From an uncultured Alphaproteobacteria bacterium (lineage in GTDB: Bacteria; Pseudomonadota; Alphaproteobacteria; MPNO01; DASWLB01), in NCBI GenBank assembly GCA_963775315.1, contig CAVZIN010000007.1, forward strand, positions 393,193 through 457,192: a stretch of DNA of 64,000 bases, read 5' to 3'. Shown piece after piece: positions 3,803 to 31,785 of this stretch. Within the stretch, counting starts at the first letter, position 1, and each line of letters starts with the position of its first letter. The notes below the pieces were generated by a model that did not search any database, was not told the origin of the DNA, and saw nothing but the letters and a program-made list of their open reading frames with translations. A program made the position numbers and the translations under genes.

Positions 3803-6154
<2,352 letters not shown>

Positions 6155-24164: not shown

Positions 24165-25156
24165 AATTGCGGGGCGGGGCCCTTGTCGCTAGTTGGTTGC
24201 AAATGACCGTCGTTGTCGGAGGCCAATTCCAGCGCCCGCACCTTCTCCAGCGTGATCTCGATGAGCTGCCGGTTGAAGTTCATCAGGTCGGCAACCAGCC
24301 CCACCATCCAGGCGATAAACGCCATCATCACCAGCACGCTGCCCAGCATGAGCGATTGGACGTGGCCCACGCCGGCGCCCTCGATGTAGTAGACGAGGAA
24401 GCGGACGATGGGGACCAGCCCAAGGATCAGCAGGATCGCGCCGATATAGAAGAACACCCGCAGAGGCTGGTACATCGCGTACATGCGCACGATGGTGGTG
24501 AGCTGGCGCTCGATGAAGCGCGGGATGCTCTTGAACAGGCGCGAGTCCCGGGTCTTCGGGTTGGTCTCCACCGGGACGGAGAGGACCGCCATGTGCTTCT
24601 TGCCCGCCTGGATCAGCATCTCGGTCGTGTAGCTGAACGGCGAGACGATATTGAGGCGGATGGCCGCGTCGCGCGATATGGCGCGGAAGCCGCTGACCGC
24701 GTCGGGAATGTCGATGCCGGCGAGCCGCTTGACTACGGCGCTGCCGAGACCCTGCAGCCTCTTTTTGAACGGCGAGAAATGGCCGATGCGCCCCGTCCGC
24801 CGGTCGCCGACGACGATGTCGGCCTGGCCGTCGAGAATCGGGCGGATCAGCCTGGGGATGTCCCAGCCGGCGTACTGGTTGTCGCCGTCGGTATTGACGA
24901 TGATGTCCGCCCCGCGCTTCAGGCATTCGTCGAGCCCGACGCGGAAGGTGCGCGCGAGACCGATATTTCGCTTGTTGCGTACGATGTGGTCGATGCCGAG
25001 CGCCCGGGCGACCTCGACGGTCTTGTCGGTCGAGCCGTCGTCGACGATCAGGATCTCGACCGCCGTAATGCCCTCGATGCTGCGCGGGATGTCCGCGACC
25101 GTTTCGGGGAGCGTGTGCTCCTCGTTGAAGCACGGGATCTGGACGATGAGCTTCAT
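24110..25156 (-). CDS. Glycosyltransferase family 2, GtrB/ArnC-like polyprenol-phosphate sugar transferase with C-terminal TM helices
   Basis: ORF 24110..25240 minus. Start at MKLIVQIPCFNEEHTL. Motifs DDGSTD, NTDGDNQY and DAVSGFRA. Two C-terminal TM helices as in GtrB/ArnC/DPM1-like enzymes. Confidence 0.85.
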   Translation of the reverse strand: MKLIVQIPCFNEEHTLPETVADIPRSIEGITAVEILIVDDGSTDKTVEVARALGIDHIVRNKRNIGLARTFRVGLDECLKRGADIIVNTDGDNQYAGWDIPRLIRPILDGQADIVVGDRRTGRIGHFSPFKKRLQGLGSAVVKRLAGIDIPDAVSGFRAISRDAAIRLNIVSPFSYTTEMLIQAGKKHMAVLSVPVETNPKTRDSRLFKSIPRFIERQLTTIVRMYAMYQPLRVFFYIGAILLILGLVPIVRFLVYYIEGAGVGHVQSLMLGSVLVMMAFIAWMVGLVADLMNFNRQLIEITLEKVRALELASDNDGHLQPTSDKGPAPQLCQHLDSRMGNVRVENGS

Positions 25157-26190: not shown

Positions 26191-27843
<1,653 letters not shown>

Positions 27844-27871
27844 TCCAGTCCGACGCACGACACCGAACGGG

Positions 27872-27903
27872 AACGGGGCCGCATCGCGGCCCCGTTTTCG
27901 TTC
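27872..27903 (+). terminator. Rho-independent terminator of groESL
   Basis: Perfect hairpin AACGGGGCCGC-atc-GCGGCCCCGTT followed by TTTCGTTCTG, 29 bp after the groEL stop. Confidence 0.8.
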
Positions 27904-27934
27904 TGCGAACTGGGGATTCGGCTAAACTGGCGCG

Positions 27935-29221
27935 ATGGACGCTTCCGGTCACGATCCGGGTTTCGACCGCGCGCTGACCCGGGAGATCCTTGCCAGCGAG
28001 ATCCTGCGCGCCGGGGTGATGACGGCGACGCTGGGCGGCCTTCTCGTGTTCGTGACGGCCGCCTTCGCCATCGGCCACGATGTGTTTCAGCGGTTCGCAG
28101 GGAAGCCCATCTCGGCGCTCCTTCCGGTCTACGTCGTCGGGCCGTTCTTCATCTACGAGTGCGCGTTCCTGATTGGGTTACGGATGTTCGCGGCGCGCGG
28201 CCGGCCGCCGCCGCGTCCGGCGCCCTACGGGAACGCCATCGTCGAGACCAGCCTGCCGTCGGTGATCCTCCTGGTCGCGAGCGGCTATGCCGATCCCACG
28301 GTCATCTTTGGCGGATGGCCGGTGTTTCTCTATTTCGTCTTCATCCTGGCCGCGACCCTCCGCCTCAACTTAGCCTTGCCGATGCTGACCGGCGTCGTCG
28401 CGGGTGCCGAGTACATGGCCGTCGCCGCCTATGTGTTTCCGCTGTCGTTCTCGGCCGACCGGGCGGAGCTGATACCCGTCTTCCACCTCGGCCGGGTGGC
28501 CATCATGCTGATCGCGGGACTGGTCGCCGGTCTTGTGGCCATGCGGCTCCGCGCTAACTTGGTCCGCGTCCTCGAGGAATCGGCGGAACGGGACCGGGTG
28601 ACCGCGCTGTTCGGCCAGCACGTCTCGCCATCGGTGGTCGACCGGCTGCTCGACGCCAATGTCGGAACGGAGGGAGAGGCACGCCAGGTTTGCATCCTGT
28701 TCCTCGACTTCCGCGACTTCACGGCGTTCGCGCGCCAGCGCACGCCCGAGGAGGTGGTCGATTTTCTGAACCGTTCCTTCGCCTTCATGATCGAGGCGGT
28801 CGACCACCATCAGGGGATCATCAATAAGTTCCTCGGCGACGGCTTCATGGCGACCTTCGGCGCGCCGCTCACCGACCCCGACGCCGCGACCCACGCGGTC
28901 GCGACCGCCCGCGAGATCCTGGCCGAAATGGACCGCCGCGCGGCGCCCGGCGGCACCGGGCTCAGGGTCGGCATCGGCATCCATGTCGGCGTCGCGGTGA
29001 CCGGCTCCATCGGCTCGCCGCGCCGCAAGGAGTTCACGGTCATCGGCGACATCGTGAACCTCGCGGCACGCATCGAGCAGCTCAACAAGGAGTTCGGCTC
29101 GCGTCTCCTGGTCTCGCAAGCGGTCGCCGACGCGATCGGGGCCGGGCTCGGCGGTGCCGGACCCTTGCAGGCCGAGGTGAAGGGCTATGCCGACCCGATC
29201 GCGGTCTGGCGGCTCGACTGA
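27935..29221 (+). CDS. Membrane-anchored class III adenylate/guanylate cyclase
   Basis: ORF 27935..29221. N-terminal polytopic domain, C-terminal CYCc domain (..ILFLDFRDFTAF...FLGDGFMATFGAP...GIGIHVGVAVTGSIGS..). Confidence 0.8.
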   Translation: MDASGHDPGFDRALTREILASEILRAGVMTATLGGLLVFVTAAFAIGHDVFQRFAGKPISALLPVYVVGPFFIYECAFLIGLRMFAARGRPPPRPAPYGNAIVETSLPSVILLVASGYADPTVIFGGWPVFLYFVFILAATLRLNLALPMLTGVVAGAEYMAVAAYVFPLSFSADRAELIPVFHLGRVAIMLIAGLVAGLVAMRLRANLVRVLEESAERDRVTALFGQHVSPSVVDRLLDANVGTEGEARQVCILFLDFRDFTAFARQRTPEEVVDFLNRSFAFMIEAVDHHQGIINKFLGDGFMATFGAPLTDPDAATHAVATAREILAEMDRRAAPGGTGLRVGIGIHVGVAVTGSIGSPRRKEFTVIGDIVNLAARIEQLNKEFGSRLLVSQAVADAIGAGLGGAGPLQAEVKGYADPIAVWRLD

Positions 29222-29255
29222 CGGCACGCGCCGCCGAAGTGCGGCAGGCGGGCGC

Positions 29256-29440
29256 TCAAGCTCCGTCCTGGTCGCCCGGCCCGATCTCCTCGACCGGACC
29301 GCCCCAGAGCTGTACCCGCCCGAACCCCGACGTCACGATCAGCGTCTGTCCCAGCGGGCGGGGTCGGGCGCCTCGAAAAGGGGGTCGACGCGCACGGTGC
29401 CGGTGAAGTGGGCCTCCGGCCCCTTGCCGGACGGCCGTGA
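29256..29440 (-). pseudogene. Degraded remnant of a small cupin-domain gene
   Basis: Minus-strand frames give ..[19 protein letters not shown].. and, in another frame, ..[29 protein letters not shown].. followed by a premature stop. Both are classic motifs of ~130-aa cupins, but the segment between them is deleted or frameshifted and the C-terminal His ligands are missing. Confidence 0.4.
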
Positions 29441-30253
29441 ACCGTTTCGCGCGATGTCCATGGTCGTTCCCCTCAAGCGGGGGTGACGGGGATATGGGAT
29501 CGGTTGCGACGCGGCGCCAACGCGCCCGCAGGAACTTCGTCGGCCATGACGGCATCGATCTGCGCCTGCCCACCCATGGCGGGCGTCCGCGTGGGAGTGA
29601 AGTGGTCGATGTCCGCCAGCACGTATAGCGATCGGCTAGCGATCGGCGCCAGACATCGCCGCCAGCCTGAAATCAATCATGGGCGGGCGCCCACGCACTC
29701 CCGCCATCCTATGCCATACCCGGCCCAACTGGCCAAAGAGGGGGCAGGATTGGCATGGGCGAGTTCCCACCGTGACTTGGGATGACTTCGATTTTATCTC
29801 GGTTGACTCTTTGTGCAATTCGATGAAGACTTGGCACCGCCGAATATGATTTCGGTCGGTCCGGAGATACGCTGGCACCCTACCGGATCGGCTGGGCACG
29901 CGTGGCGCCGGCCCTTCGGGGCCGGTCCCGCGGCGCCCCCGCCAGCCCCCTCTCCCGTAGCGCGCGCAAATCCCTTCCGTCGTTCCGGCGCTTCTTCCGC
30001 GCGCCGACAGGCGCCGCTGCCTGACCGGCCGTCATCCGGTGGTCACGCGGCTGCCGCATCCTGCGCGGGGGCGCGCCGGTGCGCTTCTTAGGGGCGTTTT
30101 CGAGCCGTCTGGCGCGCTTAATTGCCTGTCAAAGGGCGGGATTCGGTCCAATCGGGCTCGTTTCTGGCGCCAAATGGTGGCATTTCGGGGCCACCCCCCT
30201 TCCATCCGGGGTGGCACGCGCCCAATTGTGGCGGTATGGTGCGTACGGATGGA

Positions 30254-30290
30254 GCCGGTTCGCGTCGCGCGACCGGCTTTTCGATTTTTG
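30254..30290 (+). terminator. Intrinsic terminator-like hairpin plus T-tract immediately upstream of the FKBP gene
   Basis: GC-rich stem GCCGGTTCGCG/CGCGCGACCGGC followed by TTTTCGATTTTTGG. It ends about 25 bp before the FKBP ATG (RBS GGAGGA at ~30305). No plus-strand CDS lies upstream of it. Confidence 0.55.
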
Positions 30291-30314
30291 GCTGCGAGTT
30301 TGCGGAGGATAGAT

Positions 30315-30743
30315 ATGACACAAGCGAAGATCGGCGACACGGTGCGGGTTCACTATACTGGCACGCTGGAGGACGGGCAGCAGTTCGATTCCTCCTCGGG
30401 CCGCGATCCGCTGGAGTTCGTCATCGGGCGCGGGGCGGTCATCCCCGGCTTCGAGAACGCCGTGATCGGCATGGCGCCCGGGGAATCGCGGAGCGTCACC
30501 ATCCCCTCGCAGGAGGCGTATGGCGACCACCGCCCCGAGGCGGTGCAGGAGATCGACCGCGCGCAGATCCCGCCCGGCCTCGAGGTCGAGCCCGGCATGC
30601 GGCTCGAGGCGTCGGACCGCGAGGGCCAGCCGCTGCTGGTGACGGTCGTCGAGGTGTCCGACAGCGCGGTGACGCTCGACGCCAACCACCCCCTGGCGGG
30701 CGAGGACCTGACCTTCGAGATCGAACTGGTCGAGATCGGCTGA
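30315..30743 (+). CDS. FKBP-type peptidyl-prolyl cis-trans isomerase (SlyD/FkpB-like)
   Basis: Frame of ORF 30039..30743, ATG at 30315 preceded by GGAGGA. MTQAKIGDTVRVHYTGTLEDGQQFDSS...LEFVIGRGAVIPGFENAVIGMAPGESR. Confidence 0.85.
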   Translation: MTQAKIGDTVRVHYTGTLEDGQQFDSSSGRDPLEFVIGRGAVIPGFENAVIGMAPGESRSVTIPSQEAYGDHRPEAVQEIDRAQIPPGLEVEPGMRLEASDREGQPLLVTVVEVSDSAVTLDANHPLAGEDLTFEIELVEIG

Positions 30744-30783: not shown

Positions 30784-31785
30784 GTGCAGACCATCGGCAT
30801 CATCGGCGCCGGCGCCTGGGGCACGGCGCTCGGACTCGTTGCGCGGCGCGCGGGGCGCGACGTGACGATCTGGGCGCGCGATCCCGCGGTTGCGCGCGAG
30901 ATCGATGCCGACCATGCCAACTCGGCCTTCCTGCCCGACATCGCCCTCGACCCCGCCCTCCGCGCGACCACCGATCCGGCCGGGGCGGCGCGGGCCGAAG
31001 CGCTTCTCCTCGTCGTGCCGGCGCAGTTCCTGCGCGAGACGCTGACCGGGTTCGCGCCCCACCTCGCGCCGGGCACGCCCTGCGTCATCTGCGCCAAGGG
31101 CATCGAGCGGGCGAGCGGCACGCTGATGAGCGCGCTGTGCGCCGAGATGATTCCCTCGGCGCGGCTCGCCGTGCTGTCGGGGCCCACCTTCGCGCCCGAG
31201 GTGGCGCGGGGCCTGCCCACCGCCGTCACGCTCGCCTGCGACGACGCCGTGCTCGGCGCCGAGCTGGTGGCCGCGCTCGGCAGCTCGACCTTCCGGCCCT
31301 ATCTCGGTGGCGACCCGGTAGGCGCCCAGCTCGGCGGGGCGATCAAGAACGTGATCGCCATCGGCACCGGTATCGTCGAGGGGCGGGGGCTCGGCGAGAA
31401 CGCGCGCGCGGCGCTGATCACCCGCGGGCTCGCCGAGATGACGCGGCTCTGCGTCGCGCTCGGCGGGCGGGCGGAGACGATGATGGGGCTCTCGGGGCTC
31501 GGCGACCTGGTGCTGACCGCGACGGGCGAGGCGTCGCGCAACTACTCGCTCGGCGTGGCGCTGGGGCGCGGCGAGGCACTTTCCGCTATCCTGGCCCGGC
31601 GCCGCTCGGTGGCCGAGGGGGTGGCGACCGCGCCAGCCGTCGTCGCGCTCGCCAGACGGCAGGGGATCGACATGCCGATCTGCCGCGCCGTCGATGCCGT
31701 GCTGCATCGCGGCCAGCCGATCGACGATGCGATCGCCGGGCTGCTCGCCCGGCCGTTCCGGGCCGAGGCGGCGGCGCGCGATTGA
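30784..31785 (+). CDS. gpsA: NAD(P)H-dependent glycerol-3-phosphate dehydrogenase
   Basis: ORF 30784..31785. IGIIGAGAWGTALG...GAIKNVIAIGTGI... Confidence 0.9.
   Translation: MQTIGIIGAGAWGTALGLVARRAGRDVTIWARDPAVAREIDADHANSAFLPDIALDPALRATTDPAGAARAEALLLVVPAQFLRETLTGFAPHLAPGTPCVICAKGIERASGTLMSALCAEMIPSARLAVLSGPTFAPEVARGLPTAVTLACDDAVLGAELVAALGSSTFRPYLGGDPVGAQLGGAIKNVIAIGTGIVEGRGLGENARAALITRGLAEMTRLCVALGGRAETMMGLSGLGDLVLTATGEASRNYSLGVALGRGEALSAILARRRSVAEGVATAPAVVALARRQGIDMPICRAVDAVLHRGQPIDDAIAGLLARPFRAEAAARD

Follow-up and report, generated by a model that had tools for sequence, protein, structure and literature searches.

A conserved two-hairpin element and a terminator-like hairpin upstream of FKBP-gpsA: a candidate small RNA gene in a narrow clade of uncultured Alphaproteobacteria

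Genomic Setting of the Locus

The window is the whole 64-kb stretch of DNA that was analyzed, and it comes from a high-GC uncultured alphaproteobacterium. Its central part carries groEL, a nucleotidyl cyclase gene, the remains of a cupin gene, a long gap, and the genes FKBP and gpsA. The features of this part are listed below in order of position.

26209-27843, groEL
27935-29221, plus strand, class III nucleotidyl cyclase (Pfam PF00211)
29271-29360 and 29354-29461, minus strand, fragments of a decayed cupin gene
29680-29693, plus strand, box A, TGGGCGGGCGCCCA (TGGG-N6-CCCA), palindromic and operator-like, with invariant half-sites and a variable centre in six genomes
29756-29769, plus strand, box B, TGGGCGAGTTCCCA (TGGG-N6-CCCA), 76 bp after box A
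29776-29782, plus strand, CTTGGGA, invariant, after box B
29790-29831, plus strand, promoter-like block: AT-rich GATTTTATCT (29790-29799), TTGACT (29803-29808), 17 nt, AAGACT (29826-29831)
29842-29853, plus strand, conserved A/U-rich single-stranded lead-in GAAYATSATTTC
29854-29893, plus strand, P1 hairpin: 11-bp stem (29854-29864 with 29883-29893) and 18-nt loop AGAUACGCUGGCACCCUA (29865-29882)
29894-29938, plus strand, P2 hairpin: 18 bp with A.C and C.C mismatches, a bulged G, and a YUCG tetraloop (29915-29918)
29939-30207, plus strand, variable C-rich stretch after P2, unalignable between genomes
30081-30104, plus strand, weak extra terminator-like site, GCGCUUCUUAGGGGCG + UUUUCGAG, within extra spacer specific to the window
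30211-30240, plus strand, FKBP promoter-like pair: GTGGCA (30211-30216), 18-nt spacer, TATGGT (30235-30240)
30252-30289, plus strand, conserved terminator-like hairpin GAGCCGGUUCGCG-UCG-CGCGACCGGCUU, then the U-run UUUUCGAUUUUU
30304-30309, plus strand, Shine-Dalgarno sequence GGAGGA, followed by the FKBP start codon at 30315
30315-30743, FKBP
30784-31785, gpsA, after FKBP
3' of gpsA, EVE, Rieske, and succinate dehydrogenase genes

Relatives of the window were found through FKBP and gpsA protein searches followed by contig look-ups. The comparison set consists of six genomes, namely the window and L001, L002, L003, L085, and L086, which represent six species of one narrow clade. All genomes compared are uncultured MAGs or metagenome contigs. 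L001 is the same genome as L082, and L002 belongs to the same species as L081. The FKBP proteins of the five clade relatives are 89-96% identical to that of the window, and their gpsA proteins are 77-83% identical. Beyond the clade, the FKBP identity of the next-nearest relatives is only 63-70%, and FKBP is absent upstream of gpsA in relatives with a gpsA identity of 70% or less.

The conserved P1/P2 element has groEL directly upstream in four of the six genomes (L085, L086, L001, and L003). The cyclase, a membrane-anchored adenylate/guanylate cyclase, stands between groEL and the conserved element in the window genome only. An intact cupin gene occurs only in L002/L081, where the orthologue lies at 2986-3375 of L081. 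The cupin pseudogene of the window (29271-29461, minus strand) retains residues 1-36 and 55-84 of this 129-amino-acid orthologue in two different frames, and its middle and C-terminus are lost. In L081, which is a long-read MAG, groEL is split into two calls (1176-2773) and FKBP is shortened to 102 amino acids (4001-4309); both are probably assembly frameshifts.

Noncoding Status of the Gap

The initial annotation, which was made from the DNA of the window alone, held that about 730 bp before FKBP contain no credible open reading frame, and this is borne out. The sequence features it quoted are all present where it placed them. GC3 periodicity is absent from about 29250 to 30310, and the flanking genes reach 0.9-1.0. 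The open reading frames of the gap region have no Pfam matches, and none within the gap is conserved in the relatives. A small open reading frame starting from the ATG at 29847 was considered and rejected, as this start codon is lost in L002 and L003, the substitutions lack 3-periodicity, and there is no Pfam match. The noncoding stretch actually extends from 29462 to 30314, and position 29462 borders the decayed minus-strand cupin gene. A repeat or mobile element was rejected as well, given that a second copy is absent from the window. No tRNA or tmRNA was found in the region. Intergenic DNA is mostly unalignable across the six genomes, and four blocks stand out from it.

The P1/P2 Element

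The most conserved feature of the gap is the 85-nt two-hairpin element at 29854-29938, which was overlooked in the initial annotation. Across the 91-nt stretch that covers it (29850-29940), identity is 92-97% in every pair of the six genomes, compared with 82-90% for the FKBP coding DNA of the same genomes and 54-79% for its four-fold degenerate sites. The element is thus more constrained than the neighbouring gene. Conservation drops abruptly after P2.

Ten columns of the element vary, with seven among the 22 of the P1 stem, one among the 18 of the P1 loop, one among the 36 paired columns of P2, and one in the tetraloop of P2. Of the seven in the P1 stem, six contain transitions only and retain pairing through G-U (G-U/G-C/A-U). 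In the remaining one, L002 has changed G to U, and one pair is broken. When the P1 stem is read on the plus strand, 98.5% of its cells are paired, against 80.3% on the minus strand; for P1 and P2 together, the values are 99.4% and 88.5%. The wobble pattern of P1 suggests an RNA made from the plus strand. In P2, 17 of the 18 pairs are invariant in the six genomes, and this near-invariance suggests a constraint on the sequence as well as on the structure, such as protein recognition or alternative pairings. The six sequences show no strict double-sided compensatory changes, the column-shuffle control is not significant with these six, and thermodynamic z-scores do not separate the strands (-2.2 vs. 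-2.3). The structural evidence for the element is therefore suggestive, not statistical.

A covariance model of the element (R1) was built from four sequences, and it recovers the later-retrieved L085 and L086 with 98 and 111 bits. None of 76 other FKBP loci scores above 16 bits. The element occurs once in the window, two exact-pattern scans of the metagenome collection returned no matches, and a blastn search of plasmids found none. In all six genomes it lies upstream of FKBP in the same orientation, and its upstream neighbours differ (groEL, cupin, and cyclase). Rfam 15 was scanned at permissive thresholds with 2.2 kb and with 131 nt of the region. No family was found at its gathering threshold, as the best matches reached 10-16 bits against thresholds of 35-104 bits. 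The Rfam scan, which the initial annotation had recommended, thus produced matches at noise level only. In the relatives, P1/P2 and the terminator-like hairpin are kept, and the hairpin at 30190-30215 is not.

The words CGCUGGC...GGCUGGGCA prompted a comparison with HDV-like self-cleaving ribozymes, which have a nested double pseudoknot with the 5' strand of P2 between P1 and P3. Such a ribozyme was rejected, because P1 is a continuous 11-bp hairpin whose 18-nt loop leaves no room for the P2 and P3 strands of such a ribozyme, which makes the topology impossible. HDV-type Rfam models gave no match at E<=10.

The P1 loop was also compared with possible pairing partners. Its duplex energies with 73 start regions of the window, a set that does not include FKBP, have a mean of -15.0 +/- 3.0 kcal/mol, and the value for the gpsA start (-14.6 kcal/mol) is unexceptional. 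Pairing of the loop with spacer sites or with the 3' conserved block yields energies within the background of GC-rich sequence. A literature string search with the loop sequence retrieved only unrelated primer or plasmid sequences. A 17-mer of the loop is found exactly in four viral contigs (L090-L093, IMG/VR), always inside open reading frames that encode ..DTLAPY.. and always without the flanking stems; these matches were rejected as homologues and attributed to chance.

Upstream Boxes and Promoter-Like Block

Both TGGG-N6-CCCA boxes are kept in all six genomes, and they are 75-77 bp apart where this was measured (the window, L085, and L086). Together with one further copy, at 24409, the window has three instances of the motif, compared with an expectation of 0.9. 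Downstream of the boxes, TTGACT and the invariant AAGACT keep a fixed 17-nt distance in the six genomes, and the spacer between them varies in sequence. This block may represent a promoter, as judged from the spacing. A consensus sigma-70 promoter scan called no promoter anywhere in the region. In the four genomes with groEL directly upstream, the upstream block serves no minus-strand gene. A sigma-54 reading of TGGCAC was rejected, since a -12 element is missing and the relatives do not keep the copy found in the promoter block.

The initial annotation had proposed promoter-like hexamers, TTGACT...GAATAT, within a low-GC patch. The patch is real (GC 0.49-0.58 over 29750-29899) and both hexamers are present, but TTGACT (29803-29808) and GAATAT (29842-29847) are 33 nt apart and so cannot belong to one sigma-70 promoter.

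Terminator-Like Hairpin and FKBP Promoter-Like Pair

A plus-strand terminator had been noticed earlier at 30254-30290, before the FKBP ribosome-binding site. A terminator-like hairpin with a U-run is indeed present, at 30252-30289, and it is conserved in the six genomes of the clade and in L083, a contig of 592 bp with an FKBP of 70% identity. The hairpin (30252-30279) has a folding energy of -19 kcal/mol in the window and of -16.8 to -23.3 kcal/mol across the six genomes. In this hairpin (GAGCCGG...CCGGCU) the lower stem is invariant, and the upper stem changes yet remains paired. The tail TTTTCGATTTTT occupies 30278-30289 and ends 25 nt before the ATG at 30315. The U-run comprises 3-5 U in five of the six clade genomes and in L083, and L003 has only UCUUCC with the stem kept. 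The two hallmarks of an intrinsic terminator, a stable GC-rich stem-loop and a U-run immediately 3' of it, are thus both present, the second weakly in L003. Judged from the genomes compared, the conservation of hairpin and U-run is well beyond chance.

A custom scan of the 64 kb for a hairpin followed by TTTT found four sites on the plus strand (17048, 27895, 30097, and 30278) and none on the minus strand; most genes of the window presumably end transcription by other means. The site at 27895 is the groEL terminator. In full-length folds from the predicted upstream start, the terminator helix has a probability of at least 0.97 in five of the six genomes and of 0.16 in L086, and the six folds contain no conserved antiterminator or competing structure. 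A group II intron domain V reading of the hairpin was rejected, as the wrong strand carries the bulge, the loop varies, and Rfam gave no match.

Just upstream of the hairpin, GTGRNN (within GGGGTGR) and TAWGKT are separated by exactly 18 variable nucleotides in all six genomes. A fixed 18-nt distance with a diverging spacer sequence is characteristic of promoters, not of RNA helices. TAWGKT lies 9-11 nt before the terminator-like hairpin across the six genomes and 11 nt before it in the window. GTGGCA-18-TATGGT agrees with the consensus at 8 of 12 positions, which is below the promoter-scan threshold. It is a putative FKBP promoter, with a predicted start at about 30245-30248. A sigma-32 reading of the 3' block (CCCTTCCA...GCCCAATT) was rejected, because it is not retained in L085 or L086.

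Spacer between P2 and the Terminator-Like Hairpin

The spacer from P2 to the terminator-like hairpin measures 313 nt in the window and 101-162 nt in the relatives. Its first 80 nt have a C/G ratio of 1.1-1.95. The spacer of the window is about 150-210 nt longer than those of the relatives, and the extra terminator-like site at 30081-30104 is included in this difference. A counterpart of that weak site, GGCGTTTTC, was found in L001 only.

The hairpin at 30190-30215, to which an anti-Shine-Dalgarno-like loop had been ascribed in the initial annotation, is present in the window. It is not conserved and, as a structure, is no more than expected by chance. In the relatives, its 5' arm has changed with no compensating substitutions, so that it forms no pairing in L085 and 3-7 bp in the other genomes. 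The 3' arm is also the site of the conserved GGGGTGR/-35-like box.

A Candidate Small RNA Gene and the Alternatives

The conservation of the element, its pairing on the plus strand, the missing coding potential, and the conserved hairpin with a U-run are direct observations. The element is noncoding and intergenic, and it has a conserved secondary structure on one strand, as is expected of a small RNA. Our best explanation, tentatively held at a probability of about 0.45, is that the feature is a lineage-specific small noncoding RNA gene between groESL and FKBP-gpsA, whose transcript would be stopped before FKBP, with FKBP having a promoter of its own. Transcription would start at about 29838 from the AT-rich upstream element and TTGACT-17-AAGACT. 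The promoter would probably be controlled by a putative dimeric DNA-binding protein at the two TGGG-N6-CCCA boxes. The functional core would be about 100 nt long and consist of a short A/U-rich 5' tail, P1, and P2. P1 would present its 18-nt loop, through which the RNA may act in trans, and P2 would form an irregular hairpin with a UUCG cap. After P2, the transcript would enter the poorly conserved C-rich spacer. Its 3' end may arise in this spacer, by Rho or by processing back to P2, or at the intrinsic terminator at 30252-30289. If the transcript ends in the C-rich spacer, P2 may serve as a protective 3' hairpin. The FKBP-gpsA operon would be driven by GTGGCA-18-TATGGT. With this promoter placed just upstream of the hairpin, we propose that the same hairpin both keeps the upstream transcript from running into FKBP and serves as the stem-loop at the 5' end of the FKBP mRNA.

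Several observations do not fit a small RNA easily. P2 has no U-run, so that a short form requires Rho or processing. It is unusual for a promoter to stand immediately before a terminator hairpin. The generic sigma-70 scan calls neither of the putative promoters, and the constant adjacency to FKBP in one orientation also fits a role in cis. The last point leads to an alternative that we consider unlikely, in which the region belongs to the FKBP-gpsA mRNA as a long, structured 5' leader. Transcription would then run from about 29838 into FKBP, and P1/P2 would bind a ligand or protein and set the passage through the spacer (Rho) and the terminator. The position of the element upstream of FKBP, unchanged in six of six genomes despite differing upstream neighbours, agrees with such a leader. 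So does the riboswitch-like layout, in which a variable middle separates the conserved 5' domain from a conserved terminator directly before the ribosome-binding site; the P1 loop and the bulge and mismatches of P2 resemble a binding pocket, and by inspection the 3' strand of P1 (AUCGGCU) can pair with the 5' arm of the terminator (AGCCGGU). However, no known aptamer was matched, and the folds, in which no conserved antiterminator appears and the terminator helix predominates in five of six genomes, speak against a switch. The element is a single copy at a single locus, as far as the window, the 76 other FKBP loci, the metagenome pattern scans, and the plasmid search reach. The small RNA is favoured over a read-through leader because the spacer tolerates large differences in length, an extra terminator-like site is present, conservation drops after P2, and promoter-like boxes with fixed spacing stand between the aptamer-like domain and the terminator. 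A dependence of FKBP on read-through is hard to reconcile with an unalignable spacer of 101-313 nt that in the window carries another terminator-like site. A more specific form of the leader is distinctly improbable in our estimation, namely that P1/P2 is the sensor (ligand- or protein-binding) of a new class of cis-regulatory RNA, with the loop and P2 as the binding site, and would control the chaperone-linked FKBP-gpsA over a long distance through Rho-dependent and/or distal intrinsic termination.

The initial annotation had likewise left the choice between an independent small RNA ending at the terminator and a regulated leader. The noncoding region, a conserved structured element, and the conserved terminator-like hairpin stand, and its supporting promoter and hairpin details were wrong or incomplete. 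Its riboswitch or attenuator option gained little support, given the lack of an Rfam match and of a conserved antiterminator, the unalignable spacer, and the intervening promoter-like pair.

The two remaining alternatives concern the nature of the hairpins. It is doubtful that the hairpin and U-run at 30252-30289 are merely a feature of the FKBP mRNA 5'-UTR, such as a stabilising stem-loop or a translation control element, with the P1/P2 transcript ending independently soon after P2. Consistent with this are the -10-like box, which precedes the hairpin by 9-11 nt in every genome, the degraded U-run of L003 beside an intact stem, the retention of the hairpin in the more distant L083, and the end of upstream RNA conservation at P2. 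Against it, 3-5 U follow the stem directly in five of the six clade genomes and in L083, and there is no terminator signal right after P2. It is also compatible with the best explanation and does not exclude a small RNA. Least probable of all is conservation mainly at the DNA level, in which proteins would bind the P1/P2 palindromes and the TGGG-N6-CCCA boxes as parts of a complex regulatory region for FKBP-gpsA or the whole chaperone locus and there would be no functional RNA. P2 is a near-perfect palindrome with invariant arms, and a plain RNA stem at such divergence would be expected to covary somewhat; the upstream boxes are shaped like dimeric operator sites. However, the variation in P1 keeps pairing on one strand only, through G-U wobbles, which is a signature at the RNA level. 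The contiguous 85-nt conserved block far exceeds typical operators, and 270-380 nt separate the element from the FKBP promoter-like boxes downstream of it.

Comparison with Known Systems

Trans-acting small RNAs are encoded in intergenic regions of Alphaproteobacteria, and examples include AbcR1/2, GsrN, and the CcsR/alpha-r14 family. Like these, the element is intergenic, noncoding, about 100 nt long, and composed of two hairpins with a conserved exposed loop, and it may have a regulated promoter of its own; a hairpin with a U-run follows downstream. Unlike these, it has no Rfam match, its loop is not of the C/U-rich anti-Shine-Dalgarno type, P2 lacks a U-run, and it is known from one narrow uncultured clade only. 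Riboswitch and attenuator leaders share with the locus a conserved structured 5' domain and, downstream of it, a terminator that closely precedes the ribosome-binding site of the following gene. The locus differs from them in the unalignable gap of 101-313 nt between domain and terminator, in having no conserved alternative pairing, and in the promoter-like element in between. Moreover, the P1/P2 domain is not a known aptamer and was not found upstream of other genes in the sequences searched.

The terminator-like hairpin resembles canonical Rho-independent terminators, such as the groEL terminator (about 27860-27906), in its GC-rich 10-12-bp stem followed by TTTTCG, and the tail is identical to that of groEL. 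It departs from them in that it does not follow the end of a coding gene, its U-run is broken up (4 U, CGA, 5 U) and in one relative weak, and a predicted transcription start precedes the hairpin by about 5-8 nt. The 5' UTR of ompA is an example of a 5'-terminal stem-loop that stabilises an mRNA. As in ompA, the putative 5' end of the FKBP mRNA would be only a few nucleotides away from a stable hairpin. In contrast to ompA-type stem-loops, the FKBP start is a predicted one, and the hairpin is trailed by a U-run typical of terminators.

The locus most likely contains a new, narrowly distributed candidate small RNA (or leader) and a conserved terminator-like hairpin, an ordinary kind of feature that has no bearing on any long-standing open question. 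If this is true, a new RNA family, with one hairpin unusually constrained in its sequence, is added to a poorly known lineage of uncultured soil Alphaproteobacteria, and TGGG-N6-CCCA becomes a candidate regulator-binding motif beside groESL-FKBP, the main chaperone locus. One hairpin would also have two roles, ending an upstream noncoding transcript and capping the mRNA of the next gene. The practical value lies in annotation and in a starting alignment and covariance model for wider searches.

FKBP leaders of another kind were seen in Geminicoccaceae (L004-L007 and L026), about 130 nt upstream of FKBP. Homology to the element was rejected, as the sole word in common is GGGGTGAC. The Geminicoccaceae leaders have in common a GGGGTGACAT box and a unit of about 21 nt, CGGCGTG-N5-GCGTYGTYC, which is present once or twice in tandem, and the gene upstream of them is divergently oriented.
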